In this document: piece after piece, positions 21,678-45,272 of the stretch | Layout of the letters: every line of letters begins with the position of its first letter | Position numbering within the stretch: the first letter of the stretch is position 1 | Virus record (IMG/VR): IMGVR_UViG_3300025867_000005 | Length of the DNA stretch: 64,000 bases | Reading direction: 5' to 3' (one strand) | Origin: a virus | Taxonomy: Duplodnaviria > Caudoviricetes | Notes under the pieces: generated by a model | Told to the model about the DNA's origin: nothing | Databases searched by the model: none | The model's input: only the letters and a program-made list of their open reading frames with translations | Translations under genes and position numbers: made by a program

Positions 21678-21699
21678 TTTACCTTCTTTCTTTTTACCT

Positions 21700-26693: not shown

Positions 26694-26744
26694 TACTTTA
26701 TTCCTTTTTTTGATATTTGACGCAAAGATACAGAGGGAAAACAC

Positions 26745-29700
26745 ATGATCGATACCGTCAAAACAATTATTCTTTGCCTGTCAATCCAGGCAATTTGCTT
26801 GTTCGCCAACTCCGCACAACAAACCGTCTTCGTTACAAAACAAGATAGGGAAGCGATTAGAAATATCCAAAGCCGCACGAATTTTTACGAAAGGGCCGTC
26901 GTCACCAACGGAACAGAAAACTTCAGGCTTGATGACAACGGAATTTCGATTTCCAACGTCTCTTTGAAGAACCTTACATTTCCAAATGGTTCTGTAAGCA
27001 ATTATTTCTGGGGTAAGGAAATCATTGTAGATTCAGAAGGGAAAGGTAATTTCTCCACAATACAAGGGGCGGTTGACTATATCGACGGGATTCATGATAC
27101 AAATGACAGTATTGAAATCAGTGTAAGGGTTGTAGCTGGTAGCTATTATGAAAATGTAGTGGTAAGAAAAAAGAATATCATTATAAGAGGTGATGATAGG
27201 AGAAGTAAACTTTGGGGAAGTTTAACTATTATGGATTCTCCGACATTTGTTTCTGGTTTGTATATTCGTAGCGTGGACGGAAAAACTCCAGTAACCTATA
27301 CAAATGTAAACTCCTCTGTGCTTGGAAGCCTGCATAACTGTTATATCCTTAATGCTATAAATGTGGATACGAACACTTATTGCTTTGCTGTTGCTAATTG
27401 CAACGTTAAGGTGAACCTAAATAATACGGAACTTTATACCGCTAACAGACATTCAGGAGAAAATGCAAAATCTGTTCTGTTCTATATGAGCGGACCCGGT
27501 GGCGGAAACTTGGAAGTACATGGATGCAGGCTTAAAACATCTTCTTTAGGACCTGAAAAGAACAATGATGAAATTCTTGCTATTCTTGACGGTACTTCCA
27601 ACATGCAGATCGAAAATTCCACATGGACACCGGTTCACGACGAATATCCATCAGTCATTATTAATGACAATTCTTGGGTCGGCTGGTTCGAAAGTGCCTG
27701 CGAAACTGATCAGAATCTTGACAGACATATTGAAGTAAAAGGAACAAGTCCGAACAAGATATGGTATTACCCTAAAGAAGTCGGAAGTCTTAAAGTCACC
27801 GGAAATCTTAGATTGGGAACTGGAGATTCACATATTCGGCTTTTCAGCGACGGAACCAATACTTTCCAAGAAGATGTCAATTCTGTAACAAGCATGTTGC
27901 TTACGGCAAACAACGGCGGTCTTACCAACGAAAATGACAGCATTGCCCTTAACGCTCTTTCGATATTCGCGGATACCAACAGGGTTGAAACTTTGTGGTC
28001 GAGAGACAGGACGGAATTTCGAGACGCGACAGGCGGTGTTTGGAGAATCTACACCATTGTTTCTAATGAACTTCCGGTTGTCGTTACCCAACATTATGAT
28101 ACCATTGCTCTTGATTCAACTCTTACCAATTACCTCAAACAGACGGATTTGTCAGGGACTATAACGAATATCATCTTCGGTTTGGGATACGTTTCAAACT
28201 ATCAGGAGAATGTGACGTTAGGAGGTGTCGGTCTCGGAACTTATGAAAAAGATTCCATTGCTGCAAGCAATTTGTTTCTAGGAGGAACCGCTATTGTTTC
28301 CAATGATTTGGATGTGTCTGGGGCGACAAGAACTACAGATTTATATGCGGAAAGGATCGGGGTGAAGACAAACACTCCGCAGGAAGCCCTTCATATCAAT
28401 GGGAACGCCTTAATAGAATCAAACCTTACCGCTTCTTCTGTTCATTCCACTTCCGGAGATCTGTATCTACAAGGCACAAATTTCGGCCCCAGGATTGTCA
28501 ACAGCATTACAAACGGACAGGATAATGTAACGCTTGCGGGAACCGTATTCTCATCAACCGGGAATAGGGTTGTTTTCCCAAACAACGCAACCTATATACG
28601 AAGCGATGGAACTCTTTACGGGCACGTTCTTGGAACTTATGATGCCGTTACCGCGCAACTGGTAGATTCTCCTGTTTATGGCAACGCTCCGTTTGGACTC
28701 CAGTTTGGTTCTTCCGCAATGATAAGCTGGTCAGCGGCTCAAATGTGGGCAGAAAAGGACACCTTTATTTATAGAGATTCTTTTGGAACGGTTGGAATTT
28801 CAAGCAATCTCGTTGTTATTGGAACGAATACGGCTTACTCTTTCAGCACGACAAACTTTTATGGACTTGGCCCGACTATTGCCAATGCTCAGCTTAATCT
28901 TTTCAGCGACGGAACCAACACCTTTAGTAAAGACGTTAACGGAAGCAATTCAATGTTTTTAACGACATCTAATGGAGGCATTACAAACGGGCAAGACAAC
29001 GTTAGTTTCGGGACAATTTCCTCATCGAACCTGACGAGTATCGGGACTGTCGTTATGACGAATGGTTCTGTTTTTATTCAAGGTGCTGAAAACCGTGAAG
29101 GTCATGCTCCACTTGTTGTTCAAAATACTACACCCTATTCTGATCCTTGGTCACAATATGCTCAGATCTGGCTAAATTCTGCTGGAGTAACTTTCGCACG
29201 TATGCGTGTTGATGGAACGTTTATGATGAACGGCAGGATTGACGGAACACATTTCAACGCAGATGGTAGCCAAGGCGCTGGTTTCAATTATTTTGGGAAT
29301 GCTGGGGCGTCCATATATGGCGGTGTTTTGACAACTCCTACTTGGGGTATTGATTATCCGGCACTAGGAATTATAGATTTTAACACCTACGGAACCAACA
29401 GAATGAGAATCGGTGCCGATGGGGATATCACAATCAGCAATAATCTAACCGTTGCAAGGACCAACACAGCTTATGAAATCTTCGCAAGCAATACCGCACA
29501 TGCCAAAGACTTTTTATTGTCAGATGAATTGGGAATGACAGATACAATTAATGTCGTAAGCGGAATTTATCGGAATTATACCGATACCAATCCCATTGTT
29601 GTCGTAGATCCTAATGTCAGTATTTACAAGATAAACGTTTCAGAACCTTCTGCCTTTTCAAATGATTTGTCAAGACTGAATTTAAACAACAGAATCGCGG

Positions 29701-30344
29701 AATGGGAATTGTGGATAAACTTTACTTCTACAAATGCCCTTTCATCTACATTTCAAGGATTCGAATTCCAACATGAAACTGATTTTAGCGTCACGGGTTG
29801 CTATAAATTCGTTTGCAGCACAACCGATGGAATTACGGTACAAGCCAGACAGACGTATCCGACTATTTATGAAGTTAATGCTGTTCCGTATTGCCGAGGG
29901 GATAATAATTTCGCGTATAGTGCATATCTGAATGTCCTTGATGACGGCACAACAAATGGCGCTGTTATCGCTTTTCTCAAGCCTGACAAACACACCTATT
30001 ACATGGTAAAGATGAATGTAGGTTTCGGAAATCCGGATTGTGCGACAAACACGGTCAGTATAAGAGTCGGCACTTCAGTATATGGCGGTGGTGACAGATT
30101 GCTTCCTGAAGTCGCAGTTTCACTTCAAAATCCGAGTGAATGGTGGGCTGGCGCAACGACAGGATTCATAATGTTCCCGCCAATAGCCACTAATGGATGG
30201 TGGGATTACGAACAAATTACGCATTGGGGATTTTTTGAAGCCACAAGATTAGCAAATAACGGAAATGTTAGCTGTCAAAGGTTGTTTCTACGTCAAGCCA
30301 ATGAACTTGAAATTAAGGCTTGGGAACAGAAGAATCTGCCATAA
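26745..30344 (+). CDS. large fibre/tailspike-like protein with N-terminal signal peptide and pectate-lyase-like beta-helix segment
   Basis: IIVD..G.GNF.TIQ.A..G.Y.E beta-helix start; IGVKTNTP..ALHI.G; ITNG repeats. Confidence 0.7.
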   Translation: MIDTVKTIILCLSIQAICLFANSAQQTVFVTKQDREAIRNIQSRTNFYERAVVTNGTENFRLDDNGISISNVSLKNLTFPNGSVSNYFWGKEIIVDSEGKGNFSTIQGAVDYIDGIHDTNDSIEISVRVVAGSYYENVVVRKKNIIIRGDDRRSKLWGSLTIMDSPTFVSGLYIRSVDGKTPVTYTNVNSSVLGSLHNCYILNAINVDTNTYCFAVANCNVKVNLNNTELYTANRHSGENAKSVLFYMSGPGGGNLEVHGCRLKTSSLGPEKNNDEILAILDGTSNMQIENSTWTPVHDEYPSVIINDNSWVGWFESACETDQNLDRHIEVKGTSPNKIWYYPKEVGSLKVTGNLRLGTGDSHIRLFSDGTNTFQEDVNSVTSMLLTANNGGLTNENDSIALNALSIFADTNRVETLWSRDRTEFRDATGGVWRIYTIVSNELPVVVTQHYDTIALDSTLTNYLKQTDLSGTITNIIFGLGYVSNYQENVTLGGVGLGTYEKDSIAASNLFLGGTAIVSNDLDVSGATRTTDLYAERIGVKTNTPQEALHINGNALIESNLTASSVHSTSGDLYLQGTNFGPRIVNSITNGQDNVTLAGTVFSSTGNRVVFPNNATYIRSDGTLYGHVLGTYDAVTAQLVDSPVYGNAPFGLQFGSSAMISWSAAQMWAEKDTFIYRDSFGTVGISSNLVVIGTNTAYSFSTTNFYGLGPTIANAQLNLFSDGTNTFSKDVNGSNSMFLTTSNGGITNGQDNVSFGTISSSNLTSIGTVVMTNGSVFIQGAENREGHAPLVVQNTTPYSDPWSQYAQIWLNSAGVTFARMRVDGTFMMNGRIDGTHFNADGSQGAGFNYFGNAGASIYGGVLTTPTWGIDYPALGIIDFNTYGTNRMRIGADGDITISNNLTVARTNTAYEIFASNTAHAKDFLLSDELGMTDTINVVSGIYRNYTDTNPIVVVDPNVSIYKINVSEPSAFSNDLSRLNLNNRIAEWELWINFTSTNALSSTFQGFEFQHETDFSVTGCYKFVCSTTDGITVQARQTYPTIYEVNAVPYCRGDNNFAYSAYLNVLDDGTTNGAVIAFLKPDKHTYYMVKMNVGFGNPDCATNTVSIRVGTSVYGGGDRLLPEVAVSLQNPSEWWAGATTGFIMFPPIATNGWWDYEQITHWGFFEATRLANNGNVSCQRLFLRQANELEIKAWEQKNLP

Positions 30345-30384
30345 AATTTGATATCCACTCTCTTTGAAAGAGGGGAGATTAGAC

Positions 30385-33300
30385 ATGATAAAGAAACTGA
30401 TTCTTGCCGCTTTTATGGCATTCGCGTTAGACGCATATTCAGAAACTAGCATTAAAGATTGGCTTTTGACCTTAAAGGCTAGTTCTGAACAGGCTGCTGC
30501 CCATATCGGGACGGCTTGGAAACACCTTACATCTGAAGAAAAGATTCGGGTTGGCAATGCCGTAACCAATCATCAAGATACCGTTGATTTCGGAGATATA
30601 AATATCTCTGGCACTACTATCAAGAGAAGCGCTCCAGAAGATTACTGGAAATCAATCACAATCCCAAGTTTGTCAGTCTTGGATACCGCATGGATCGGAA
30701 CCGTTTCCGTCAATAATTCGATCAGTGATCAATCATGGGGAAACACAAAAATAGCTTGGGATTATCAGCGCGGTCTTGTGTTTTCAACCTCCCCGTATTT
30801 GGGTGTTCAAACAGAAAGAGCGATTATCGGACTGGATGGTAACGTCGGGATATCTAACAACCTTCTTGTCAGTGGTTACGGACAGGCGGGAGGAATCCTT
30901 CTGTCGAACGGGACGGTAGTTCTTCCGGTAAACGGTGCCACGATGACAGAACCTGGGCAAATCGGATGGGATTCCGTATGGCAGACGCCTTCCATTAGAC
31001 TTAACGACCATGTAACCGGACAGATTTTCATGGAAGATTTCGTTTTCGTCACCAACATTACAGATATCGCTATTCCTGACGGTGCGGCGGTCTATGCGAT
31101 CGGGGTCGCAGGAAATTATCAATGTGTCTATCTTGCTACTTCTACAAATATCCTTTGCAGAACCGCGACGAAGGGTTTGACAACCGAACCGATTCCCCCA
31201 CACGGAAGCGGACATGTAACTGTTCGAGGAGGTGTCAACTTCAGTGACACCTCTATGTTTGAAGTCAAAGATGTCGTTTATCTCTCAACGACTCCGGGCG
31301 TCCTTACTTCTGTTTTGCCTCAATTTCCAGAAGACCAAATTTCTATGGGTAGTGTAGATATCGTATCTTCGACAACCGGGCGTATCAGTGTCAATATCCG
31401 TGCGATTGACAGAAAAGAAGAAAACCTTGTCGGAACCCTTTATGCCTACAATTCTAAACTTTCAGATATCAATGGTTATCATCTTCTTTCCAACGAATTT
31501 GAAAGTGTTGAAGGATATACGACATACACGACTAACGGAGTGACTAACGGACAAACGGTAATTTCTTATCTTTCTCCTGTTTCCAGAGTTACTACTTTGG
31601 CAGGAGGTGTATCGGCGACAATACGGATTTATTCAACAATAAACAAAGACGGTAATAATCCCGGAGGATTGACCGCTAAGTTGTCCGTTTATACAACGAA
31701 CATGACGGTTTTGGCATCCTATACTTCAGGATATCTTGGTTTGGATCAGAACGAAATAAAACGAGATGTGCAAATTTCAATCCTTAGCAACCAGACTTTT
31801 ACCGTTCCCGTAAGGTTCTCTTTAGACCTTATTGCACAGCATACATCAGCGACTAGAAATTATTCTGTATTTGCGGAAGACGGAAGGCCGTTAAGTGTAG
31901 AAGTTCCTCTTCCTTCCGGACAGTTTGCTTTCCGAAGCGATTTGGAAAACTATGTCCTTAAAACGACATATAACGCCGGTATGTCAAATAAACTTGATGT
32001 TTCAAACGGCACGGCGACAAATCTTACGGTTGTCAAGCCGCTTATCGTCAAAGGGACAGACCATTCGAATCAAGACGTGTTCTTCCCTCAGTCAAACGGC
32101 GTACAGGTTGTAGGCGACCCGGATCAGGATTTATTCTACGGACTAGGCGGAACAATAGGAAAGCCCGCTTGGTGGATGCAGACCTACAGGAACGAAAACA
32201 GTTCTGGAACCAACAGCCCGGAATTCATGTATTTCAGCAATGCCAGAATCGCCAAAGACATCATGATTCTTTCCGAAGGCGGTAGAATGTCAGTCAACAA
32301 GACATCGAATATCCTTGACTATCACAGCGATTACCAAGGATATCAAATGGGAGCGCTCAATGACTTGAAGTTTAGCGGAGTATATTCATATTCCAAACAG
32401 AGGAAATATGATGTCTATATTTCAAGTCTCGGGAATCCAGACAGATGGAGCTGGAAAAAGAGTTATGACAATGGGTTGACATGGGTAGAGTCTGGTGTCA
32501 CAAATGAATGCTCAACAACAAATATGGTTGTTGAAAACGGTGTCCGTGTAAGTTTTGATTATGTCACTGGACACAATCTTCATGATGCGTGGATAAGAAC
32601 CGGATATGCCCAGCTTCCACCAGCTACCGTTCATATGGCACCACAGGCATATGAAGAAATAGGGTTCACGACCAACTACAACAATGAAAGCGGATGGGAA
32701 GACCTTACCTATACAATGGCGTCTACAGTGCATTCCAGTGACAGGTACGCATTGACAAATACATCTTCTGCCATTTATCTCGGAAGGGGAATAAAAATGA
32801 ATTCCACCTTCTACAATCTTGCGGAATACGGTGTCGGCCTTGCGCTTGTTTTCGAATATTGGAACGGAAGCACATGGATGCCGATTACCGTAGGCAGTCA
32901 TCATCTTAGTGACGGAACCGCCAATTTCACCCAGTCAGGACAGGTGTCTTGGGACAAATTCCTTATTTCCGATTGGAAGACAGGGGGTGTGACAAAATAC
33001 AGCGGAGAAGATTTGTTCTGGCTTAGAGTCCGCACTTCCGTAACTCCTTCCATCCCGGCGAAAATCAAGAACATTACCCCTCAGGGAAAAGTGAGATTCG
33101 GAATAATGGGAAGACAGTACGATGACGATTACAGCTTTTATGTTGACGGTTTCGGAAGCAGCTATCAGATCAAGGGTTATCAGTCTGATACCGGTTCTAC
33201 TTTTGAAGCCAACCAGCTTATTACCGCCGGGGCCGTCAATAAGCTTCTTGATGCCTTCAGAACCTTCAATTTGTATTTTTCTACGAATTTCAATCCTGTT

Positions 33301-36300
33301 TCAGCCCCCAACAGATTGCTGACTTCAATGGCAGTGCCGGTTTGGAAAACCACAACGGCATTAAGCCCAGGCACAAACCTTGTCGCCTGTTTTGTTTCTA
33401 CGAACACCATAGGGAGCACCTTGATTCCGGCAGGAACCAAGTATTCAACAACTTATTACGCTTCTAAAACAACGTCTCAGGGAGCAAACGCCTATTGGGA
33501 ACTTATCGAAGTAGGCGACGGAATCACAAACGTTATTGCAAGTTCAGCGGAAACTCCACTTGTTCAGACGACTCCTACCATCATTTCCACATCCGTATAT
33601 CCGGCAACGAACTTCAACGTACAGTCATCCCATTATCTCGGCGTAAGAGTTTACGGAATTCGTCCGGGAAATGCCGTAAGCATGGTGCTTTACGGTGGCG
33701 GCAATTACGGGTCTTCTCTTTCAAGTCCAAGCGTCGGAACTACAGGCGGCGGGGCGGGAATTATAGACGCACCCTTAGACGGAATAGCTTACGGAAGGAA
33801 GAATCAGACTTGGGTCCAGGTCTTGGAACCCAACGGAAGCGGAGCTTCACTTAGCGGTGTCGTAAAGGAAACAGATCCTAAATATGTCAACGCCCTTACC
33901 AACGAAACAGATTCAAAGGCTCTTTCTTCTCTTGCGGATTTCGCCGCAACAAATCAGGCCAAAGCCGTTTATTCCCAAGACGGGGGACAATGGATAGACG
34001 CTACTGGTGGCGTTTGGAGAATCTATACTAATGTCTGGAAACTTACGCTTTCAGATATGGGAATTTCTATGGTTATCCCGAACCTTGGAAACCCTCTTCC
34101 TTCTTCTCGGTTTGAGATTTCAAATGTCAGTGGGGTCACCGGATTGACGTTTGTTGTAGCTCCTAGAGACGTAGGAATTGATGTCGTCGGGTTTGCTTAT
34201 CTACACAATAATGAAATGAGTTATTGGGAAGATGATTCTGTTCCTCTTGCCGAAACAAATATCATATTGGACACTTTTATCGGAAGTTTCCCTCAGAATC
34301 CAGGATATTTGAGATACGAAGCGATTGCGACCCAACTTGTAGACGGAGTTGTTTTCAAAAGTGATACCACAAACTTTGCGACAGCCGCACAGGGATTGAA
34401 GGCAGATACAGCTATTCAATCGGCTTACGGCATCACTGTTTCTTCAAACAATTTTGTTGTCGGTGTCGGCACTAGAAACACAACGATATGGCCTAACCAA
34501 ATTACTGTTTCTCAGGCGGCTGGTGTCAGCGGAGGTATAGATTCGGACGGGTTGTTTGAAAACTTTAATACCCCTCCTTATACCAGACATTTTGATTTCC
34601 CTTTAACAGCAGGTATCCTCGCCAGCCTCGCGGATGTCACGAACAGGACTGTCAACCAGATCATAATGACGACAAACGCTATGGGAATGGCCACGAATAT
34701 GAGATGGAGGGAATCCTCTGTATGGAAGTCCTATCCTTTAGGCGGCGCTTCAGAACTTCCTACCGGAGTAATTACCAACGGCTATCTTGGTGACATAGGA
34801 TTCACCAACAATCTTACGGTAGCAGGAACTAATTTCGCATCTGTATTTAATTCGGCTTCAGGAGACTTCTATCTACAGGGAACGAATTTCGGACCAAGGA
34901 TTGCAAACAGTATTACAAACGGGATGAACGAAATAACTTTAGGAGGTATTGTCCTGAGCAATGATACCGTTAATGGAGATTACGGTAATTTTACATATTC
35001 TGTTCAGTTAGGGAATCTTTCAAGCATTCAGCATCGGTCGGCTGACGGGAATGACATGATTTTCTCAGGATGGTCAAGTGATTTTAGTCACGCCTTCGAC
35101 CGTTTCAGATTATTTGCAGACGGAGGGGCTATCTTCCCTACTGGAAACGTTTATACCGTAAATTCCGGAACCATCACCAATCAGGTCGTTGTTTCCCCTG
35201 TCGGAAGCAACCAGGTTTCCCAACTTTGGAAAGGCAGCAATACGGAATTTCAGGCTCTAGTCGTTACAGATCCGAATAGCCTCTATGTTGTCTCTGATGA
35301 CAACAGCGTATACAGTGACAATGGAATCTATCATCCGGTAGAAACCTACAATGTATTCCTTGCTCCTGTGACGACCATTGTCTCGCTCGCACAGGATAAG
35401 ACGGTTTACAGAATCAACGTCGATACGAATGCCATTCTTGCAGTAGATTCTTCAGCCATGAATCTAACAGATAGGGAAGCAAAATTTGACCTCGAATTGA
35501 ATGTTTCGGAACCCAACCTTCCTATCAGTTTCGTCGGGTTTGAATTCAGTCAGACTCCTGACCTTTCGGCAACGGGGATATACAGATACGTATGTAATGT
35601 TATTGACAACCAGAAAGTCATTGTAACCATCCCTACTATTACCGGTCTAGCCTATGTTCCTTATACCGGAGCCACAGGCACCGTTGATATCGGAACCAAT
35701 TCAATCAAGATCGGAGGCAACGCCCTTGTCGACAAAGTTCTGACGGTAAACGGATATGCAGAGGTTTCAAACAGGATAGAACTTCTTGGACCAGGAAGTT
35801 ATATCGGAGGTTTGGATGTTCTTTCAGGAGATTATTCTGGAAGCACGAAAGCTGTGTCTGGAACCTTCCTTTATCAAGAGCTGTACACTTCTTTCACGAA
35901 TTCCGTTACGAATTCAATGCAGATTTCAGATCAGCATCTTTCCCAGATGTTGCAAACGAATATCAATCCTAGAATTCTGTCTGTTGAGTCAAATTCCTTG
36001 GAATTTTCAGAATGGCTGCCTACAAACACATATGTAAAAGTGGAAGAAGATCCGATTGCCGGACCCAGAATCACAGAACTCGAAAACCATACGAATAACT
36101 GGAACCAAGCTTATTCATGGGGAAACCATGCGGTTGCCGGATATCTTCTGATTTCTGACTTCACGGAATGGAAATCCACAAATACCTATGTGAAGACGGA
36201 AGTAGATCCACATTTCTTCGAATGGCTGGGAACAAATACTTATCCGAAGACAGACAGCGGGGCTTCAGCCTTCCGCTATTACAACTACGGAAATCCGGAA

Positions 36301-37065
36301 ACGGAAGAAAGTCCGGAAGCGTGGTTTACATTCGATGCCGGAACCATCACAGCATTCGATTATGTCGCGGGAAGAGAAAAGGTTGTCATACCTTGGGAAA
36401 TCGGAGGTGTGCCTGTTGTGAAAATCGGGAATTCAGCGTTTTCAGGAGATTCGATTACCAACGTCTATGTTCCTAGAAGCGTGACGAATATCGGAAATTC
36501 GGCTTTCATGAACTGCGCCAGTCTTGCGGCTGTCTATTATTCCTGTGACGTTCCCGTTGAAGGAGTCGGAATATTTCTGTCTGCCCCCGGCGTTACAAAC
36601 TATATCGTCAATCTGTTTGCCAAGAACTGGGGAACGGAATACGGAAGCCGTCCTGTCGTAAGGGCATCTGTCTATTCCGACAGCTTCTATCAAGGTGGCC
36701 AGCTTGTAGCGACGACGCAATACGTCAATCAGGTTATTTCTTCAACGATATCTCCTGAAACCGACCCCTATATGGAATGGACGGGGCAGGTCGTTCCAAG
36801 CGGAAGCAGCGCAACAATTACGGCGGCACACGGAAGTCTTCCTTATCTTATCCTTACGAGGACGACTACCTTGTCTATAGATTCAACTGGCTTCGGCACA
36901 TCTGGCGTCAGTAGGATTTCTTTAAGCGTTCAGGCTGGAAGTTATACCTTGAATATGGACGAAAATATCACGCTATCGACAGAAATAAGTCTCCCTACTA
37001 CAGGGTGGGGAACTATTTTGTTGCGTAGAGTATCAAACGATGCATGGAAGGCGGCACAACTTTGA
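30385..37065 (+). CDS. very large tail-fibre-like protein with signal peptide and C-terminal BspA-like LRR segment
   Basis: GGAG SD before ATG 30385; DAPLDG.AYGRK..W, FATAAQG.KADTA, YVPYTGAT, ETDP motifs; VIP.EI.G.PV..IG..AF. Confidence 0.75.
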   Translation: MIKKLILAAFMAFALDAYSETSIKDWLLTLKASSEQAAAHIGTAWKHLTSEEKIRVGNAVTNHQDTVDFGDINISGTTIKRSAPEDYWKSITIPSLSVLDTAWIGTVSVNNSISDQSWGNTKIAWDYQRGLVFSTSPYLGVQTERAIIGLDGNVGISNNLLVSGYGQAGGILLSNGTVVLPVNGATMTEPGQIGWDSVWQTPSIRLNDHVTGQIFMEDFVFVTNITDIAIPDGAAVYAIGVAGNYQCVYLATSTNILCRTATKGLTTEPIPPHGSGHVTVRGGVNFSDTSMFEVKDVVYLSTTPGVLTSVLPQFPEDQISMGSVDIVSSTTGRISVNIRAIDRKEENLVGTLYAYNSKLSDINGYHLLSNEFESVEGYTTYTTNGVTNGQTVISYLSPVSRVTTLAGGVSATIRIYSTINKDGNNPGGLTAKLSVYTTNMTVLASYTSGYLGLDQNEIKRDVQISILSNQTFTVPVRFSLDLIAQHTSATRNYSVFAEDGRPLSVEVPLPSGQFAFRSDLENYVLKTTYNAGMSNKLDVSNGTATNLTVVKPLIVKGTDHSNQDVFFPQSNGVQVVGDPDQDLFYGLGGTIGKPAWWMQTYRNENSSGTNSPEFMYFSNARIAKDIMILSEGGRMSVNKTSNILDYHSDYQGYQMGALNDLKFSGVYSYSKQRKYDVYISSLGNPDRWSWKKSYDNGLTWVESGVTNECSTTNMVVENGVRVSFDYVTGHNLHDAWIRTGYAQLPPATVHMAPQAYEEIGFTTNYNNESGWEDLTYTMASTVHSSDRYALTNTSSAIYLGRGIKMNSTFYNLAEYGVGLALVFEYWNGSTWMPITVGSHHLSDGTANFTQSGQVSWDKFLISDWKTGGVTKYSGEDLFWLRVRTSVTPSIPAKIKNITPQGKVRFGIMGRQYDDDYSFYVDGFGSSYQIKGYQSDTGSTFEANQLITAGAVNKLLDAFRTFNLYFSTNFNPVSAPNRLLTSMAVPVWKTTTALSPGTNLVACFVSTNTIGSTLIPAGTKYSTTYYASKTTSQGANAYWELIEVGDGITNVIASSAETPLVQTTPTIISTSVYPATNFNVQSSHYLGVRVYGIRPGNAVSMVLYGGGNYGSSLSSPSVGTTGGGAGIIDAPLDGIAYGRKNQTWVQVLEPNGSGASLSGVVKETDPKYVNALTNETDSKALSSLADFAATNQAKAVYSQDGGQWIDATGGVWRIYTNVWKLTLSDMGISMVIPNLGNPLPSSRFEISNVSGVTGLTFVVAPRDVGIDVVGFAYLHNNEMSYWEDDSVPLAETNIILDTFIGSFPQNPGYLRYEAIATQLVDGVVFKSDTTNFATAAQGLKADTAIQSAYGITVSSNNFVVGVGTRNTTIWPNQITVSQAAGVSGGIDSDGLFENFNTPPYTRHFDFPLTAGILASLADVTNRTVNQIIMTTNAMGMATNMRWRESSVWKSYPLGGASELPTGVITNGYLGDIGFTNNLTVAGTNFASVFNSASGDFYLQGTNFGPRIANSITNGMNEITLGGIVLSNDTVNGDYGNFTYSVQLGNLSSIQHRSADGNDMIFSGWSSDFSHAFDRFRLFADGGAIFPTGNVYTVNSGTITNQVVVSPVGSNQVSQLWKGSNTEFQALVVTDPNSLYVVSDDNSVYSDNGIYHPVETYNVFLAPVTTIVSLAQDKTVYRINVDTNAILAVDSSAMNLTDREAKFDLELNVSEPNLPISFVGFEFSQTPDLSATGIYRYVCNVIDNQKVIVTIPTITGLAYVPYTGATGTVDIGTNSIKIGGNALVDKVLTVNGYAEVSNRIELLGPGSYIGGLDVLSGDYSGSTKAVSGTFLYQELYTSFTNSVTNSMQISDQHLSQMLQTNINPRILSVESNSLEFSEWLPTNTYVKVEEDPIAGPRITELENHTNNWNQAYSWGNHAVAGYLLISDFTEWKSTNTYVKTEVDPHFFEWLGTNTYPKTDSGASAFRYYNYGNPETEESPEAWFTFDAGTITAFDYVAGREKVVIPWEIGGVPVVKIGNSAFSGDSITNVYVPRSVTNIGNSAFMNCASLAAVYYSCDVPVEGVGIFLSAPGVTNYIVNLFAKNWGTEYGSRPVVRASVYSDSFYQGGQLVATTQYVNQVISSTISPETDPYMEWTGQVVPSGSSATITAAHGSLPYLILTRTTTLSIDSTGFGTSGVSRISLSVQAGSYTLNMDENITLSTEISLPTTGWGTILLRRVSNDAWKAAQL

Positions 37066-38201
37066 AAACATTAATTTTAACCCTATTACTCCCTCTTTAC
37101 TGTTTCGGGTCTTTCAACCAAGACTTTGATGAAAATTTTCTTTCGGCTCTCTCGACACAGCCGACAGGAACGGTTTTGACTTTCACATATGAAACCACAT
37201 ATCCGTCTGCAATCGTATTAGGGTCAACTTACTCTGGGCCAGCAGATGCGTCAAAAGCATTATATAATGCTGGAAACGGATGGAAACAGTACTCTTCAAA
37301 AACGATAAACGTGTCATCGAAGAAAATCTTTTTCAAGGGAGACTGGAGGACAGGTGCCGGAACTATTGCACAACTTTTCAACCAAACGTTTACAAACAAT
37401 CATTATGTCTCGATGTCCGGAGGATTTGATATCAACGGAAGCTATAAACCAAATATGTTTCAATCTGTTTTCTACGGATGTAACGGAATACGAAGCATAC
37501 CTTCTGGACTTTTCGGAAGCGTAACCGGGATGCCGCAAATAGGAATGTGTCAGTCGACGTTTAGTAGCTGTAATGCCATTACGGGCGCTATCCCAAGCAA
37601 TTTGTTTGGAAACATTGAAGGACCGTATGCTAATAATATGTTCGCATATACTTTTTATAACTGTTCGAAACTGACAAACGACATTCCTGCCAATCTTTTC
37701 GGATCGGTAACAGGGGCTCCTGCATATGCGATGTTCCAATCAACATTCAGCGGGTGTACCTCTTTACGGACGATACCTGATTATCTGTTCGGAGACCTCA
37801 AAGGAGCTCCATCCGGATACATGTTTGATAAAACGTTTTACAATTGTAGAGGGATTACAAATCTGCCATATGGAATCTTTGGAAGTTTTGGAAACGGGTT
37901 GATCGGACCTCCTGCTCCTGATATGTTTAGTCAAACATTCCGAGACTGTATAGGTCTTACAACTCTGCCTTATGCATTATTCCAAGGTCTTACCACTGGC
38001 ACAGCTCAAAACAACATGTTTCTGTATACCTTTTACGGCTGTAAAAATATCACATCGAGTTCTGCGACTTTAAACAGCGGCGTAAAACTCTATACCAAAT
38101 TCCCTGCTCCAGACTTTACGTTCGTTCATATCGGCGGATGTTTCAAAGATTGTACAAGCATGTCAGACTATGCCACGATGCCAGATGTCTGGAAACAATA
38201 A
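37062..38201 (+). CDS. exported BspA-like leucine-rich-repeat protein
   Basis: TTG start overlapping upstream TGA; hydrophobic N-terminus; ~31-aa MF..TF..C..L...IP..LFG repeats. Confidence 0.8.
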   Translation: MKTLILTLLLPLYCFGSFNQDFDENFLSALSTQPTGTVLTFTYETTYPSAIVLGSTYSGPADASKALYNAGNGWKQYSSKTINVSSKKIFFKGDWRTGAGTIAQLFNQTFTNNHYVSMSGGFDINGSYKPNMFQSVFYGCNGIRSIPSGLFGSVTGMPQIGMCQSTFSSCNAITGAIPSNLFGNIEGPYANNMFAYTFYNCSKLTNDIPANLFGSVTGAPAYAMFQSTFSGCTSLRTIPDYLFGDLKGAPSGYMFDKTFYNCRGITNLPYGIFGSFGNGLIGPPAPDMFSQTFRDCIGLTTLPYALFQGLTTGTAQNNMFLYTFYGCKNITSSSATLNSGVKLYTKFPAPDFTFVHIGGCFKDCTSMSDYATMPDVWKQ

Positions 38202-38235
38202 AGAAAATCTGTTTTTCAATGGGGGACCAATCAAA

Positions 38236-39372
38236 ATGTCTAAAACTTTTACACTCACCATATTGTCTGTCCTATCGGCTTTCATTTGTACGGCGGAGCT
38301 TTATGTCAAGGATTCAGGTCATACAAACAAAGCTTTCGTTTATGTCAAGCAAAGAGAAGGGTCTATTACCAACGGTTCTAATATCTGTGCCGTCTACAGC
38401 GGAGACAAGCTTGTAAGCAATCCGAGAAGGAAAAGTTTTCCAACCAGTCTTGAACCTATTCTTACATTTACGTATTTAAGTGGACATCCGTCTTCAATAA
38501 ATCTTTTTTCCTCCTATCCCGGCCCCGCCAATCCAGATAAGGCTTTTTATGATTCCGGACAGGGTTGGACGACCTATACGGGTCGTACGATTCCTGTCTA
38601 CGGGAACCGTGTCAGATTCAAAGGAGATTGGAGAGACAGCGAAGGAAGATTTTATCGGATGTTCGATTCTACTTTCGGAAGAGACAATCCTGTAAAACTT
38701 ACAGGAAAATTCGACACAAGAGGTTTGCAGTTTGTCCCTGAAATGTTCTATTCTACCTTTCAGACTTGTTCCGGCCTTACCGGACCTATTCCAAAAGACC
38801 TTTTCGGAGACGTATCCGGGACGCCACAAGCATATGTGTTTTATTCCACATTTTACTTTGACGGAAATCTTTCTGAAATTCCACCTGGTCTTTTCAGCAG
38901 GCTTTCAGGAAATTATGCGGATTCCATGTTCCGATACACATTCTACGGCTGTATAGGGATTACAAATTCAATCTCAGACAATTTCTTCGGAAATCTTTCA
39001 GGGAATCCTTCACAGTACATGTTTACCGCGACATTCGGAGGTTGTCAAAAACTTACGGGAGATATTCCGAACAAGCTTTTCGGAAACATTTCGGGAACTC
39101 CTGCGACCGGCATGTTCAGAGAAACATTTATGAACTGCACAAAGCTTTCAGGGAACATCCCTGTCGGCTTGTTCGGAGATATATCAGGCACGCTTCCTAC
39201 CTATGCTTTTTTATCGACATTCATCAATTGCTACGATCTTACAGGGCCTTCGGCGTTAATGCCGGACGGCACAACCTATCTTTATCAACAGTTTTCTGGA
39301 TATACCACCACCTGTTACCAGAATTGCACCAACCTTTCGGATTATGCTTCGATTCCGACTGGATGGAAGTAG
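38236..39372 (+). CDS. exported BspA-like LRR protein (paralogue)
   Basis: signal-like N-terminus; same FKGDWR domain, repeats and Y..IP..WK end. Confidence 0.8.
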   Translation: MSKTFTLTILSVLSAFICTAELYVKDSGHTNKAFVYVKQREGSITNGSNICAVYSGDKLVSNPRRKSFPTSLEPILTFTYLSGHPSSINLFSSYPGPANPDKAFYDSGQGWTTYTGRTIPVYGNRVRFKGDWRDSEGRFYRMFDSTFGRDNPVKLTGKFDTRGLQFVPEMFYSTFQTCSGLTGPIPKDLFGDVSGTPQAYVFYSTFYFDGNLSEIPPGLFSRLSGNYADSMFRYTFYGCIGITNSISDNFFGNLSGNPSQYMFTATFGGCQKLTGDIPNKLFGNISGTPATGMFRETFMNCTKLSGNIPVGLFGDISGTLPTYAFLSTFINCYDLTGPSALMPDGTTYLYQQFSGYTTTCYQNCTNLSDYASIPTGWK

Positions 39373-39433
39373 GAATTGCTTATGTCTGTTTTGAAAACTC
39401 TTTTGATAAAAGTAACAACTTAGAGGTGAAGAC

Positions 39434-39892
39434 ATGATCATTTATACAGCGATTAAAGAGTTTGTCATCAAACCGGAAAACATCTTGGTTTCGATAGGCG
39501 ACACTCTCAATAAGTTTGAAAACGCCGTTATGGTTTCAGTAGGTGGACAAAACCTTACTGAGCGTACGTTTTATATGTGGGTAGGAATGCCTGAAAGTTT
39601 GGACTATCTATCAGAATCTTCCATCCTTCCTGATCCGCCTGTTCCAGGCGACGGCAATACGGCAGGAGGCACAGAAACATTAGCAGCGGGATTGGAAAGC
39701 CTTACTGTTACAGGAAAAGGCTGGTCATTTACCCCTTCTTCCGTTGTAGCGATTGTATGCAAACCGGCCAATGGGTCCAACATTATAGCTTCAATCATCA
39801 GCGGGTCGATTTCTTCCAACGGATTCACGGCGGAATTTTCCGCTCCTATTCCTGATTCAAGTTATACTTTATTGTATATCGCTTCTGCTTAA
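39434..39892 (+). CDS. putative virion structural protein
   Basis: GAGGTG SD; beta-rich C-terminal domain (ISSNGFTAEFSAP). Confidence 0.65.
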   Translation: MIIYTAIKEFVIKPENILVSIGDTLNKFENAVMVSVGGQNLTERTFYMWVGMPESLDYLSESSILPDPPVPGDGNTAGGTETLAAGLESLTVTGKGWSFTPSSVVAIVCKPANGSNIIASIISGSISSNGFTAEFSAPIPDSSYTLLYIASA

Positions 39893-39907
39893 TATATGGA
39901 GGTAGAG

Positions 39908-41524
39908 ATGAGAAAGATTTTGTTTTCATGTGTCGCTTTTTTGCTTTTCGGACTTTCCTGCTTTGCGGCTGGAGAAACCCCGATATCCAATCTGAAACTG
40001 ATGACAACTGCCAACGGAAACCTTAATTCCTTTACGAATTTGGGAACCCTTCAATCATCTACTGGCGCTTTTTCTGTTGTTAATGTCGGAGGCGTTACTC
40101 ATAACAGTATGGGAGAAACGACAATCCTTGAAACTTGGACAAACGAAGTCGGGAACGTCACGTCCCAAAAGGTCGTTACGGCAGGAACAACCAACCTGTC
40201 TTATTACGGAGCCGGAACTGGTTCTGGAGGTATTACAAACGGACAGACTGGGGATATCGTTCTAGGAGACGTTAAGATATCCGGTTCGTCAATTTCATCT
40301 GCTCTTGATCCTAGTACGGGAGTTATAAATTTGTTTGAAGGATCGTACTTGATAGATTCTAAGCTTGGATCGGCTTTTGGCGGACGTTATAATACTCCAT
40401 CGATTATTTCATATGGACAGAATGGTGGTGTCGGAGACGCTGACCTATATCGTGGATTTAGTTATAAATACGGACCTCTGGTTTATCAAGTTATGCATGA
40501 CGGTAGCATTATGACTTCCAATAGCATCACGGCTTATGGAACCAATACGGCTTTACGTTTTCAAACAGTAAAAAATGGCGTTACTTCTGTTGTGGTAACA
40601 TCTGATTCCTCTGTTTCGAATACCGTGGAGAAACTTTGGAAGGGTAATGCTGCTGAAGTCACAGCTATTACGAATGTAGAACCCGACACGATATATTTCG
40701 CAGCAAGTGATTCTACAGTTTTTTCAGATACTGGAATTTATCATCCGACTGAGATTTACAATGTTTATACCGATCCTCAGACGACTGTCGTGTTAGTTGT
40801 AGAATCTAAGAACGTATATAAGATCAATGTCAACACCAATTCAATTATTGTTATGGATGCTTCAACTCTTAATTTCACAAACAGAGAAGCAAAATTTGAA
40901 CTAGACCTGAATATAACCGTTACGAATATCCCATCGATTACGTTTGTCGGGTTTGAATTCCAACAGGAACCTGATTTTACCGTAACGGGTTGTTATAAAT
41001 TTGCATGTAGCATGATAGACACTACCACTGTACAGGCTAGGCAGACTTATCCGACAGTGTATGAATGGAAAAAACTTATAGGAGTTTCAGATACTGGACA
41101 GAATGAACCACGTAATGGGGTAATAATTAAAGTCATTGTTGCATCAGAAATAACTAATTTCTTTCAGTTTTATGTCCCAGATCGTGAAGCATTAATTTTA
41201 GACATGAGAGCGTTTATTTATTATCTTGACAGAGACACACCATTTCATATTTCCTATGCAAGATCTGAGCTATCTGATTACTCTACTTTTCAAGATCCAA
41301 TAACTAATTATGTTCCAAGTGCAAATCAGAGTGGAATAAGTTCTGGATATACTGGTACAAAAATGTTCGTTCCTCATGTTGATCAGGACTTCACTGAATT
41401 GGGATTGAAAATAGTTATCATGAAACCTGCAATATCCAATGGTGACTGGATGTTATATACACCATTTTCTCGTAGAGCTAACGAACTAGAAATCAAGGCT
41501 TACAATGCTGGCTGGAGACCTTAA
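39908..41524 (+). CDS. fibre-like protein with signal peptide; shares modules with 26745 and 30385 proteins
   Basis: MRKILFSCVAFLLFGLSCFA; GIYHP.E.YNV, REAKF.L.LN, QARQTYPT, ANELEIKA. Confidence 0.75.
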   Translation: MRKILFSCVAFLLFGLSCFAAGETPISNLKLMTTANGNLNSFTNLGTLQSSTGAFSVVNVGGVTHNSMGETTILETWTNEVGNVTSQKVVTAGTTNLSYYGAGTGSGGITNGQTGDIVLGDVKISGSSISSALDPSTGVINLFEGSYLIDSKLGSAFGGRYNTPSIISYGQNGGVGDADLYRGFSYKYGPLVYQVMHDGSIMTSNSITAYGTNTALRFQTVKNGVTSVVVTSDSSVSNTVEKLWKGNAAEVTAITNVEPDTIYFAASDSTVFSDTGIYHPTEIYNVYTDPQTTVVLVVESKNVYKINVNTNSIIVMDASTLNFTNREAKFELDLNITVTNIPSITFVGFEFQQEPDFTVTGCYKFACSMIDTTTVQARQTYPTVYEWKKLIGVSDTGQNEPRNGVIIKVIVASEITNFFQFYVPDREALILDMRAFIYYLDRDTPFHISYARSELSDYSTFQDPITNYVPSANQSGISSGYTGTKMFVPHVDQDFTELGLKIVIMKPAISNGDWMLYTPFSRRANELEIKAYNAGWRP

Positions 41525-41526
41525 TC

Positions 41527-43962
41527 ATGATTATTAAAAATATATTCTTTATAGTATTATTATCATGTATTTCTGTCTTCGGACAAATCTATCAGATGCC
41601 TAATACTGATGTTACTAATGGATTAATTGCTCATTATAAATTAGACGAAATGTCATATGATGGGACCGCTGGTGAAGTTAAAGACAGTAGTGGTAATGGG
41701 AATAATGGGACTAGTTATGGAGGCGTTCTTACCAACCCTGGGAAAATAGGCAGAGCGGGATATTTTGATAGTGTAAGTCATATTAATGCCATGTTACCTT
41801 CCGTATTGGAAATGCCAGTATCCTTATCATTATGGGTTAATTTTGAAGAAAATAAATTAATCACATCAGTTTCAACCGTTATTTCTTTTGAATCGTATAG
41901 GCCAAGAATCAGTTTTACGACATATAGAGGATATCTTTCGTATGAAATATATCATTCAAGTCTAGGCGGAGATATTATATTTAAAGTAGGTAGCATAGGG
42001 GATAATAAATGGCATCTAATGACACTAGTACTATCATCAACAAACTCTATATGCTATGTAGACGGGACTAAGAATATGCCATTGATTGATGCTGTTTGTC
42101 CTTCGTTTTTAAACGGTTGGATTCGTCTAAGTTCAGTGACTGATGATAATTCCCAAAAATTCAATGGTCTTATTGATGATGTCCGTATTTACGACCGAGC
42201 ACTGTCTCCTGAAGAAGTCATTAAACTTTACAATCTAGGATTTCCTAAGAAACAGATAGTGGTATATAGTCCTAAAACTATTCCCTATGAATGTCTTCCC
42301 ACAAATGGACTGATTGCCCATTGGAAGCTTGATGAAACGAGTTATAATGGAACTCAGGGAGAAGTTAAGGATAGTTCTGGAAACGGAAATAATGGGACAA
42401 GTCTTGGACATGTAATTACCAATCCAGGAAAGATTGAACGCTGCGGGATATTCGATGGCCTAGATACGGGAGTGTATGTGCCCGCCCTTGACAACTATTT
42501 AGACACAAAATCCGCCGCTACATTTTCTTGTTGGATTAAAACATCTAAAGTCCAGCATCGTAAACTGATCTTGGGATGGTGGTGTTCTTATGATAATTGC
42601 ATAAGGCTTGAAAGCGGATATTTACGTTTTTTTTTGAAAACAGACACAACACCATATTCAACAATACAGATTGAAGAATCCCAAATAAATGATGGAAAAT
42701 GGCATTTCTTATGTGGAACATATGACGGCGCGAAGCAAGTGCTTTTCGTAGATGATGATTTTCAATCGGTTGATCTGACGGGTATCATAGTGTCTCCCGA
42801 CATATTTGGGTTTGGCACTATCGGGACTCTTTCTGAGTATAGCTTTGACGGTTCTATAGATGATGTCCGCGTCTATAACCGTGCTTTGTCTCATAAAGAA
42901 GTTCAAGAACTTTATAACGCTAGACCGATTAAGGATTCAGCAGTAGCAGTGTATAGTGGAAATACATTGGTCAGTAATCCGTTGAAGAAGGATTACCCGA
43001 ATACTGTTTCGGAGAATATCGAGCCGGTCACGCTGACATTTAAGTATGTCAGCACATATCCAGCGGCCATAACGATTGGTAGAGGTTCGTATGGACAGCC
43101 TGCCGATCCGTCCAAAGCTCTGGTAGACGCCGGTGACGGCGTGTTTGTACCGTGGACAAGCAACACGATAACGCTCAAAGGTAAGCAGATCAGATTTAGG
43201 GGTGACTGGCGCAATACAGCAGGAAACTTCATGGAATTGTTCAGTAGCACTTTCATTGGCGGACATTATGTCACAATGTCAGGTGGGTTTGATTTTGAGG
43301 GTGCGCCAGCGGCCTACATGTTCCAATCCACTTTCTATGGCTGCTCAAATCTGACAGGTCCGATTCCATCTGGTTTGTTCGGCGCGATTTCTGGCACGCC
43401 AGCGGCCAACATGTTCAATAGCACTTTCACTGGCTGCTCAAGGCTGACAGGTCCGATTCCATCTGGTTTGTTCGGTAATATCTCCGGTGCGCCAGCGGCC
43501 AACATGTTCTATGTCACTTTCTATGAGTGCTCAAATCTGACAGGTCCGATTCCATCTGGTTTGTTCGGTAATATCTCCGGTGCGCCAGCGGCCAACATGT
43601 TCAATAGCACTTTCACTGGCTGCTCAAGGCTGACAGGTCCGATTCCATCTGGTTTGTTCGGCAATATGTCTGGCACGCCAGCGGCCGACATGTTCAATAG
43701 CACTTTCACTGACTGCTCAAGGCTGACAGGTCCGATTCCATCTGGTTTGTTCGGTAATATCTCCGGTGCGCCAGCGGCCAACATGTTCAATAGCACTTTC
43801 TATAGGTGCCCAAATCTGACAGGTGAATCCGCCTTGATGCCAGACGGCACAACACACTTATATGAGCAGTTTCCGACTGCCAGCGGAACTGACTGTCAGC
43901 GATGCTATTACAACGCGACCGGGCTGAACGATTACGCGACAATGCCAAGCGCGTGGAAGTAA
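41527..43962 (+). CDS. exported protein: two LamG/ConA-like domains plus BspA-like LRR domain
   Basis: TNGLIAH.KLDE..DSSGNGNNGT..F.G.IDDVR.Y.RALS twice; C-terminal 31-aa repeats. Confidence 0.85.
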   Translation: MIIKNIFFIVLLSCISVFGQIYQMPNTDVTNGLIAHYKLDEMSYDGTAGEVKDSSGNGNNGTSYGGVLTNPGKIGRAGYFDSVSHINAMLPSVLEMPVSLSLWVNFEENKLITSVSTVISFESYRPRISFTTYRGYLSYEIYHSSLGGDIIFKVGSIGDNKWHLMTLVLSSTNSICYVDGTKNMPLIDAVCPSFLNGWIRLSSVTDDNSQKFNGLIDDVRIYDRALSPEEVIKLYNLGFPKKQIVVYSPKTIPYECLPTNGLIAHWKLDETSYNGTQGEVKDSSGNGNNGTSLGHVITNPGKIERCGIFDGLDTGVYVPALDNYLDTKSAATFSCWIKTSKVQHRKLILGWWCSYDNCIRLESGYLRFFLKTDTTPYSTIQIEESQINDGKWHFLCGTYDGAKQVLFVDDDFQSVDLTGIIVSPDIFGFGTIGTLSEYSFDGSIDDVRVYNRALSHKEVQELYNARPIKDSAVAVYSGNTLVSNPLKKDYPNTVSENIEPVTLTFKYVSTYPAAITIGRGSYGQPADPSKALVDAGDGVFVPWTSNTITLKGKQIRFRGDWRNTAGNFMELFSSTFIGGHYVTMSGGFDFEGAPAAYMFQSTFYGCSNLTGPIPSGLFGAISGTPAANMFNSTFTGCSRLTGPIPSGLFGNISGAPAANMFYVTFYECSNLTGPIPSGLFGNISGAPAANMFNSTFTGCSRLTGPIPSGLFGNMSGTPAADMFNSTFTDCSRLTGPIPSGLFGNISGAPAANMFNSTFYRCPNLTGESALMPDGTTHLYEQFPTASGTDCQRCYYNATGLNDYATMPSAWK
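43303..43825 (+). repeat. 93-bp tandem repeat, about 5.6 copies, encoding LRR units
   Basis: units start at 43303, 43396, 43489, 43582, 43675, 43768; core CTGACAGGTCCGATTCCATCTGGTTTGTTCGG identical in five units. Confidence 0.95.
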
Positions 43963-43995
43963 TGCGGCGGTGAGGACTGTTTAAACAGGAGAATT

Positions 43996-44295
43996 TTGAA
44001 AATGAGCGAGGCATCATCTACCAAACAGAAACTAGACGAATTCCGGGCGTCGTTGCCGCCTGGCGACGAGCACACCGAGCCGACGCGGGAAATGCTCAGG
44101 GTTACGTCGTACGCCTGTAATGGTGCGCCTGACAAGCAGCAGGCCCTTGCTAACGCGGTTGTCGCATTTCAGTCATTCGGAGGACAATTAACTGGATTCG
44201 TTTATGAACAAATAATCTACACCAGAGACATAAGTGATGAAGAACTTCAACAGGTAAATAACTATTTGATTAAGAAGTGGAAAATAAAATTCTAA
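43996..44295 (+). pseudogene. chimeric ORF ending in a relic LamG-type C-terminus
   Basis: GC-rich 5' half; 3' end G.VYEQIIYTRDISDEE..QV..YL..KW is a typical LamG end. Confidence 0.45.
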
Positions 44296-44307
44296 GGAGA
44301 GTAACAG

Positions 44308-45036: not shown

Positions 45037-45269
45037 AACAGTATTTTTATCTTGAATCACCGACGAGAGGATATGTCGGGATTACCAACCTTTTCAAGTT
45101 GAATATGCAGATTATCTTCAATGCTACAGACCCGACGTTTTTCAAATCCAAACAGAAATGTGAAGATTTCGCGAAGATGCTTTGTTATCAAGTCGCCGAT
45201 ATCGAAGTACGGAGCACCGATGGTCTTGAAAATTGGTATGTCAAATTGCTAGAACTTTACGCGATTTAA
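45021..45269 (+). CDS. hypothetical protein
   Basis: GGAGGT SD. Confidence 0.65.
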   Translation: MGQDIKQYFYLESPTRGYVGITNLFKLNMQIIFNATDPTFFKSKQKCEDFAKMLCYQVADIEVRSTDGLENWYVKLLELYAI

Positions 45270-45272
45270 TCA

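Follow-up and report, generated by a model that had tools for sequence, protein, structure and literature searches.

Morphogenesis of tailed phages is taught as a purely cytoplasmic process. The locus considered here raises the question of why phage genes for fibre-like proteins should begin with signals for leaving the cytoplasm, and what such proteins would do outside it. It occupies positions 26,745 to 43,962 of a 64,000-nucleotide stretch of viral DNA (IMG/VR record IMGVR_UViG_3300025867_000005; Duplodnaviria, Caudoviricetes), called the window below, which is part of a 304,450-bp metagenomic contig. A preliminary description of this fibre/adhesin module had pointed to six plus-strand genes (26745, 30385, 37062, 38236, 39908 and 41527) with apparent Sec leaders, and all six leaders are present exactly as quoted there. 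Sec export of the module proteins and cleavage by signal peptidase I (SPI) are well supported and, judged from sequence, very probable. The best explanation, to which we assign a probability of roughly 0.4, is that trimeric fibres, a beta-helix depolymerase-like spike and adhesins with LamG domains or PARCEL-type leucine-rich repeats (LRRs) would fold in the periplasm and dock to finished virions after the holin has acted. The genes on which this argument turns are the following.

24884..25516, minus strand: Cys-rich 210-aa protein, predicted to be exported, the seventh leader gene; leader MKKMIVSMLVAGLTAVSVFA, cut before GKQD by the n-h-c rule given below
26745..30344, plus strand: 1199-aa protein; predicted leader cut ANSA/QQ, beta-helix at about aa 90-350, fibre segments, trimer module at 882-1043, tip, conserved C-terminal peptide
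30385..37065, plus strand: 2226-aa mosaic fibre; predicted leader cut DAYS/ETS, APxDGxxYxRK motif, trimer module at 1591-1803, BspA-type LRR_5 at about 1980-2090
37062..38201, plus strand: 379-aa PARCEL-repeat protein, putatively exported; leader cut CFG/SF; TIGR02167; phrog_9915
38236..39372, plus strand: 378-aa PARCEL-repeat paralogue, putatively exported; leader cut CTA/EL
39434..39892, plus strand: 152-aa leaderless conserved partner, 41% identical to L001 8674 (L001 being one of the related loci described below)
39908..41524, plus strand: 538-aa fibre; predicted leader cut CFA/AGETP, N-domain of about 110 aa, trimer module at about 210-390, variable tip, conserved C-terminal peptide
41527..43962, plus strand: 811-aa adhesin-like protein, putatively exported; leader cut VFG/QIYQ, two LamG domains, PARCEL repeats
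44308..45036, plus strand: 242-aa product of a leaderless conserved core gene, present in about 20 relatives

Signal peptides and their predicted cleavage

Leaders were recognized with a fixed n-h-c rule of our own, not with a trained predictor, and the outcome was combined with comparative evidence. The rule describes Sec/SPI signals as a basic n-region, a hydrophobic h-region of about 7-15 aa or slightly longer and small residues at -3 and -1, all within the first 15-32 residues. In its strict form it is passed by all six genes and by the minus-strand gene at 24884, with h-regions of 11-17 aa (mostly 11-16 aa, and 17 aa in the 39908 protein) that consist to 56-85% of L/I/V/F/M/C. The possibility that the true starts lie downstream of the hydrophobic stretches, named in the preliminary description as a potential refutation, is countered by a GGAGG-like Shine-Dalgarno (SD) site 6-9 nt upstream of each of the six starts, by the identical starts picked by an independent public gene caller (for the proteins of 2226, 379, 378, 152 and 538 aa) and by the alternative in-frame upstream starts at 30364, 37044 and 39896, with which the leader is still N-terminal. 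The 37062 gene has a TTG start, 4 nt inside the stop of the upstream gene.

A lenient scan of the window finds the n-h-c pattern in 6 of the 7 module open reading frames (ORFs) against 10 of 75 other ORFs (Fisher p = 1.4e-4), several of these 10 being internal starts only or membrane proteins. Relatives found via the conserved 44308 protein encode Portal_T4, T4 gp13, gp15, the S77 prohead protease, a scaffold protein and Gp23, and because of this gene content the element is read as a deep-branching T4-like jumbo phage. Seven related loci from different samples (L001 and L004-L009) were compared with the window module, giving eight loci and 111 called genes. The strict rule is passed by 25 of the 111 genes, which are not independent events, since loci recovered through one marker gene are related. 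All 25 encode LRR_5, LamG, fibre-like or small unassigned proteins (some of them Cys-rich), and no portal, gp13, S77 protease, scaffold, Gp23, glycosyltransferase, 39434-like or 44308-like gene passes. The comparison of homologues in related phages, which had been proposed as a check, shows the leader to be kept in every relative fetched.

The leaders have no common sequence, only a common architecture, and conservation begins at the predicted cut. In the 26745 protein of the window ANSA is followed by QQTVFVTK, and in its L007 homologue, which begins MLKNILLSFLVAFPILA and would be cut before QESVF, PILA is followed by QESVFMTK. Similarly, CFA then AGETPISNL in the 39908 protein corresponds to VFS then AGDTPIANL in L001, VFG then QIYQ..TDVTNGLIAH occurs both in the window (41527) and in L008, and the mature start (E/D)TSIKD(W/F)L of the 30385 protein is retained in the homologue P0029 and closely resembled in P0033 (DISVKDFL). 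Gln stands at the rule-picked +1 position in 8 of the 25 genes, the sites having been chosen blind to Q (P = 4e-6 for a background of 4%), and in 10 of the 25 if the best site is taken instead. Gln directly after the cut is a signature described as specific to Bacteroidetes SPI substrates (the Q-rule; PMC5837995), and its enrichment at +1 is meaningful only for a site that does undergo cleavage in the periplasm. Kept in relatives, constant in architecture, adjoined by conserved sequence and followed by Q, the leaders behave like genuine Sec/SPI signals, which supports the Sec reading of the preliminary description.

Lipoprotein leaders, cut by signal peptidase II, were considered for the 39908 and 41527 proteins and rejected, the Cys being outside a lipobox and absent from the homologues (P0009 and a 783-aa gene of L004). 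Pfam and NCBIfam scans of all eight proteins gave no match to a Por_Secre_tail-type C-terminal sorting domain of the type IX secretion system (T9SS) and found no outer-membrane sorting domain. Because of this, the mature proteins should be periplasmic, and the earlier suggestion that the fibres are displayed on the surface of the infected cell finds no support. The O-glycosylation motif of Bacteroidota, D[ST][AILMTV], shows no enrichment (0.43 per 100 aa, with 0.38 expected from composition), and the density of N-x-S/T, 1.61, is close to the compositional expectation of 1.40.

Bodies of the module proteins

The quoted tail-fibre motifs are all found in the 30385 protein, and the proposed beta-helix, LamG and BspA-type LRR bodies are confirmed, the beta-helix by a structure model and the others by family scores. 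Laminin_G_3 (PF13385) reaches 113.9 bits in two stretches of the 41527 protein (cut-off 27.6), LRR_5 (PF13306) 28.8 bits in the 30385 protein (cut-off 27.7) and the PARCEL repeat TIGR02167 40.2 bits in the 37062 protein (cut-off 30). The 38236 and 41527 proteins stay under the PARCEL cut-off but are 36-50% identical paralogues of the scoring type (the 38236 protein is 36% identical to the 37062 protein and 50% to the 41527 C-terminus), and all three end in C-terminal PARCEL/BspA-type repeats. The 41527 protein is 49% identical over its full length to the product of the 783-aa L004 gene, which lies between portal and gp13. Within the 41527 gene, positions 43300-43824 hold 5.4 tandem copies of a 93-bp (31-aa) PARCEL repeat with 88% matches, an array that looks young or homogenised. 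The 24884(-) protein has 16 Cys in 190 mature residues, and a homologue of it sits within the L001 fibre module (29% identity, E 3e-20).

Residues 50-400 of the 26745 protein are modelled as a right-handed parallel beta-helix at about aa 90-350, with a predicted local distance difference test score (pLDDT) above 85 over much of aa 90-310 (model residues 41-260). In a structure search the best match of this model is pectin methylesterase 1gq8 (E 3e-6), and CBA120 TSP4, Fri1 gp49 and phage 7-7-1 fibres are matched as well (E 2.5e-3 to 4.4e-3); at the sequence level the beta-helix matches no solved structure. The modelled fold is similar to that of tailspikes, of pectin methylesterases and of WceF, described as a secreted enzyme of Pantoea with a tailspike-like beta-helix (PMC7949094).

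The 26745, 30385 and 39908 proteins have in common a module of some 180 aa. Next comes a tip, about 150 aa long and unrelated from protein to protein, and then a conserved peptide at the C-terminus. Multimer modelling, suggested earlier as a check for trimeric fibres, gives a homotrimer for three copies of residues 210-538 of the 39908 protein: the model scores 0.77 (the best of 3 controls scores 0.00), with 58% or more of the contacts shared between runs, a partner pLDDT of 63 or higher and an interface within the conserved module. The mark of the tool is reached by 20 of 30 solved homo-pairs and by 1 of 23 single chains, a calibration that applies only roughly here, where three copies and an alignment of our own were used. 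Modules are also shuffled between relatives. The 30385 protein matches a 1887-aa L009 protein with its residues 547-1167 (72% identity, at another position there) and L007 with its residues 153-526 (49% identity), the order of the modules being different, and P0009 of L001 joins an N-terminus that is, leader included, 48% identical to the 39908 protein to the beta-helix of the 26745 protein. As far as models and sequence tell, the bodies show the habits of phage receptor-binding proteins, i.e., module shuffling, a predicted trimer, a predicted beta-helix and PARCEL homology, which supports the fibre type ascribed to them in the preliminary description.

The PARCEL homology leads to tail proteins of other phages. 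Escherichia phage ukendt gp231 (Phapecoctavirus) and a fusion of the P2-like baseplate protein gpI in Klebsiella phage ST16-OXA48phi5.4 have a C-terminal PARCEL/BspA-like domain, linked to the proteins of the window by tblastn at E 1e-7 to 1e-9 and 26-31% identity through repeats of the type F..C..L..IP..LF. The ukendt protein has the same C-terminal ending as the PARCEL proteins here (...SDY..IP.G(W/Y)K), and the APxDGxxYxR motif of the 30385 protein recurs in the adjacent tail fibre of ukendt. Both gp231 and the gpI fusion are leaderless and have a baseplate or tail N-terminal part, whereas here the PARCEL domain comes straight after the signal peptide or after LamG domains.

The closest described system is the family of mosaic adhesive trimer (MAT) fibres of Bdellovibrio bacteriovorus, which are produced through the Sec pathway (Caulton et al., 2024; PMC10769870). 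In MAT fibres a signal peptide precedes a conserved, beta-rich N-domain (about 130 aa) and a phage-fibre-like trimeric body with swapped tips, the layout of the 39908 protein and P0009. However, the MAT genes lie on the chromosome of a predatory bacterium, which displays the fibres on the surface of its own cells, whereas the genes discussed here are those of a lytic-type T4-like phage. Searches of PDB sequences with the 26745 and 30385 proteins returned no MAT structures. Added here are the T4-like jumbo clade, the Q-rule statistic, the trimer model and the homology that ties the module directly to leaderless tail proteins.

Among 1.84 billion representatives, 144 protein clusters match a profile built from the trimer module. 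The leader rule is passed by 71 of the 129 family members that start with M, and by 40 of the 49 with at least 600 aa; Q is at +1 in 26 of the 71 leader-bearing members. One long 'leaderless' member is open to inspection: P0056, a 1375-aa fibre on the 316,857-bp contig L014, is apparently leaderless in the public call, which starts MPIENG, but an in-frame start 22 codons upstream (L014 9941-10060) gives a Q-rule leader, MRFFYIVLVSLLTLCVYA, cut before QRV. Metagenomic gene callers thus sometimes clip leaders, and because this call did so, counts of 'leaderless' members are upper bounds. Among further family contexts, both readable ones are phage contigs, and a third contig is too short to judge.

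Proposed virion assembly or free action

The explanation preferred here starts from the leaders, their conservation and the fibre-like bodies, all of which are observed, and adds export and cleavage as predicted from sequence. The host Sec machinery would translocate the proteins unfolded and SPI would cut the leaders, so that folding and trimerisation would take place in the periplasm of a probably Bacteroidota host, with the gain of a pyroglutamate N-terminus and, in Cys-rich members, of disulfides. The DNA-filled particle would be built in the cytoplasm, apart from the periplasmic fibre pool, and the two pools would meet when the holin opens the inner membrane. The fibres would then dock, perhaps via the leaderless conserved 39434 and 44308 proteins; this docking after the holin is the part that we purely infer. 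In T4, fibres join finished particles last, also in extracts, and holin lesions are large. Still more tentative, and rather doubtful, is the generalization that the T4-like jumbo phages of this clade run a second assembly line, in which Sec-exported, SPI-cut and capped host-recognition proteins would be attached post-holin.

Several points weigh against late docking of exported fibres. We know of no tailed phage that assembles in this split way, and a literature search returned no description of exported tail fibres or tailspikes. Family and PDB sequence searches matched none of the conserved N-domains directly after the cut to a known virion-attachment domain. LamG and BspA/PARCEL LRR domains are typical, too, of proteins that bacteria ordinarily secrete, and the clade is uncultured. 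The leaderless fibre-like genes at 47231 and 49146 could be conventional tail fibres or decaying copies, the location of leader genes among structural genes in relatives is weak evidence because exported moron genes are known inside late operons (lambda lom), and the SD-like sites argue mildly against a Bacteroidota host.

It is quite possible that the proteins are exported and never enter the virion, but work as free factors, whether in the periplasm, at the envelope or in the lysate. They could, for instance, spare progeny by degrading or masking the receptors of the phage itself on the dying cell and on its debris, and superinfection exclusion or sticking of the infected cell to neighbouring hosts are other possible roles. 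To such factors the same export evidence applies, the LamG, BspA/PARCEL LRR and carbohydrate-esterase-like beta-helix domains are common in secreted bacterial proteins, and in the LamG-PARCEL proteins the leader is not followed by any fibrous or anchoring segment. Against this, about 5,600 residues of trimeric, mosaic, tip-swapping fibre would be costly for masking or exclusion, and conserved flanks round a variable tip, together with N-domains right after the cut, are the design of an attached fibre. The two conserved leaderless, i.e., cytoplasmic, partners inside the module and the location of the genes within the head-neck cluster of T4-like relatives also speak against purely free action, although the leaderless 47231 and 49146 proteins could supply the real tail fibres. 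Tailed phages are known to export proteins by Sec, e.g., signal-arrest-release (SAR) endolysins, spanins, T5 Llp and lambda Lom and Bor, of which Llp, Lom and Bor are precedents for exported proteins outside the virion. Moreover, Porphyromonas phage genes with Q-rule signal peptides, annotated as capsid, spanin or unknown and not as tail parts, have been interpreted as modifying the envelope (Matrishin et al., 2023; PMC10367356). These exported phage proteins likewise use the host Sec route, and those of the Porphyromonas phages likewise have Q after the cut, but none is of fibre, tailspike-like or receptor-binding type, unlike the proteins discussed here.

Other explanations are far less probable. 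Uncleaved signal anchors or SAR-like tethers might keep the fibres at the inner membrane, on its periplasmic side, until the membrane is depolarised or destroyed, as SAR endolysins are tethered and later released, and one or two h-regions are indeed long (17 aa in the 39908 protein). This is improbable, as the small -3 and -1 residues and the Q at +1 are sensible only if the leader is cut, and conservation begins exactly at the predicted cut; the h-regions are mostly in the 11-16 aa range and, being rich in L/I/V/F and not in Gly/Ala as in SAR proteins, led us to reject a SAR-type tether. It is very unlikely that the proteins are ordinary cytoplasmic tail fibres whose starts were mis-called or whose leader-like stretch is a cytoplasmic assembly element. 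The 9 of 49 family members of at least 600 aa without a leader in the metagenomic protein library would fit such fibres, as would the fact that the leader rule is our own, but one of these exceptions (P0056) is a clipped start, every large LRR, LamG or fibre gene in the eight loci retains the leader, and the starts are backed by SD-like sites, by tightly packed or overlapping genes, by the independent caller and by survival of the leader under alternative upstream starts. Hardly credible, finally, is a bacterial adhesin locus mis-assembled to a phage, or a recent insert of host origin that has nothing to do with the life cycle of the phage. Signal-peptide-bearing BspA-type LRR and LamG proteins are typical of bacterial surfaces, but the module occurs in at least 9 independent contigs from different samples, always in a phage context (including Portal_T4, gp13, Gp23, S77 protease, CCA enzyme and T4_Y16D), G+C is even across the block, and 95-96% of the words sampled from 39434-43962 are found in two activated-sludge runs.

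If receptor-binding proteins are routinely exported across whole phage clades, host-range determinants would fold under periplasmic conditions (disulfides, pyroglutamate and perhaps glycosylation), and virion assembly would gain a post-holin step. Recombinant production of such fibres would need periplasmic expression, and annotation and host-prediction pipelines would misfile their genes as bacterial surface proteins; a survey of the targets of phage diversity-generating retroelements treated the lack of a signal peptide as an indication of phage origin (PMC6199706). If the proteins act free instead, they would represent a large, rapidly evolving class of phage-secreted receptor-binding factors. 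In addition, Q at +1 would offer a cheap clue to the host phylum of uncultured phages.

Genome context, host and neighbouring genes

The conserved core, in the window and the seven related loci, is made up of a LamG and/or LRR gene with a leader and, downstream of it, the 44308 homologue, which has none. The two are directly adjacent except in the window, where a 99-aa ORF intervenes, and in L001 the order is LRR gene, 44308 homologue and LamG gene. In both L004 and L008, Portal_T4 and T4 gp13 enclose the leader genes together with the 44308 homologue, with the protease, scaffold and Gp23 genes alongside, and in L001 the core follows a large gene in the portal position (no Pfam match) and a gene for the CCA-adding enzyme. 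In the window and L007 it is relocated beside an M16 peptidase gene. T4-like hallmark structural genes are present on the module contigs L004, L008 and L012, with none inside the window, and the capsid protein of the relatives is about 33% identical to gp23 of T4-like cyanophages. The region upstream of the L004 portal holds metabolic genes, not tail genes. A megablast of 26000-46000 against INPHARED phages gave no match, meaning that at the DNA level none of the cultured phages is a near match. The 44308 protein had no tblastn match in phages, and four IMG/VR scans (with the 39908 protein, the 26745 protein and two partner alignments) found no relatives. The host is probably a member of the Bacteroidota, a call based on the Q-rule and tentative because the SD-like sites are unusual for genes of this phylum.

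The preliminary description had proposed an adaptor role for the 39434 protein and a chaperone role for the 44308 protein. Both are indeed leaderless, and for the roles themselves structure comparisons give weak leads. The 44308 model (pLDDT 90) consists of a beta-rich N-domain and three long C-terminal helices; it has no PDB match (best E 0.096), its family has no Pfam match across 18 members, and weak BFVD/Atlas rows name 'tail assembly chaperone' and DUF4376 at template modelling (TM) scores of 0.2-0.3. The C-terminal half of the 39434 protein resembles Gp53-like_C, H_lectin and K1-lyase_C in ESM Atlas, a lead with TM scores of 0.56-0.75 depending on the row.

Further features flank the module or occur in its relatives.

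25536..26693, minus strand: leaderless M16 (pitrilysin-like) peptidase; Peptidase_M16_C E 3e-10, Peptidase_M16 E 2.4e-4
43996..44295, plus strand: 99-aa TTG-start ORF between the 41527 and 44308 genes, resembling a LamG C-terminal end (read from its translation)
L004 17231-20337, L005 9974-14770, L006 4884-8781 and L008 9975-12467: glycosyltransferase clusters

The M16 peptidase has the zinc motif HLAEH (HxxEH at aa 37) and is transcribed divergently from the fibre module. It adjoins the module in L007 too, whereas L001 has a C39 peptidase upstream of the module instead, and a link of the M16 peptidase to the processing of exported proteins is conceivable. The 99-aa ORF is probably a remnant of a LamG gene, because a whole leader-bearing LamG gene adjoins the 44308 homologue in relatives. 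The leaderless fibre-like genes mentioned above span 47231-49132 and 49146-51047 and have no family match except a weak one to Flg_new_2.

The heptamer TTTGATA (26709, 30347 and 39402) is placed 32-38 nt upstream of the starts at 26745, 30385 and 39434 and looks like a promoter element, although it is not enriched in the window (24 found, 17.1 expected; 6 of 100 shuffles reach 24). Judging from coordinates, it also stands about 40 nt upstream of the non-structural ORF starts 19751(-) and 22415(-), and because of this it gives no timing information.

In four relatives the glycosyltransferase clusters (GT2, GT1, LicD and pyruvyl transferase) follow the module or the capsid gene at a distance of a few genes, and glycan modification of the host or the phage is possible. 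Genes flanking the module in the window are of phage-type accessory character and encode an NAD-dependent ligase, RtcB with an HNH insert, a nicotinate/nicotinamide phosphoribosyltransferase-like protein, IF3, dCMP deaminase, LemA and a TPM-domain protein. Other envelope-directed products of the window are a 74-aa lipoprotein with the lipobox SSGC (16572-16796, minus strand), the TPM-domain protein, which has a leader (20369-21070, minus strand), and the LemA membrane protein (21096-21764, minus strand).

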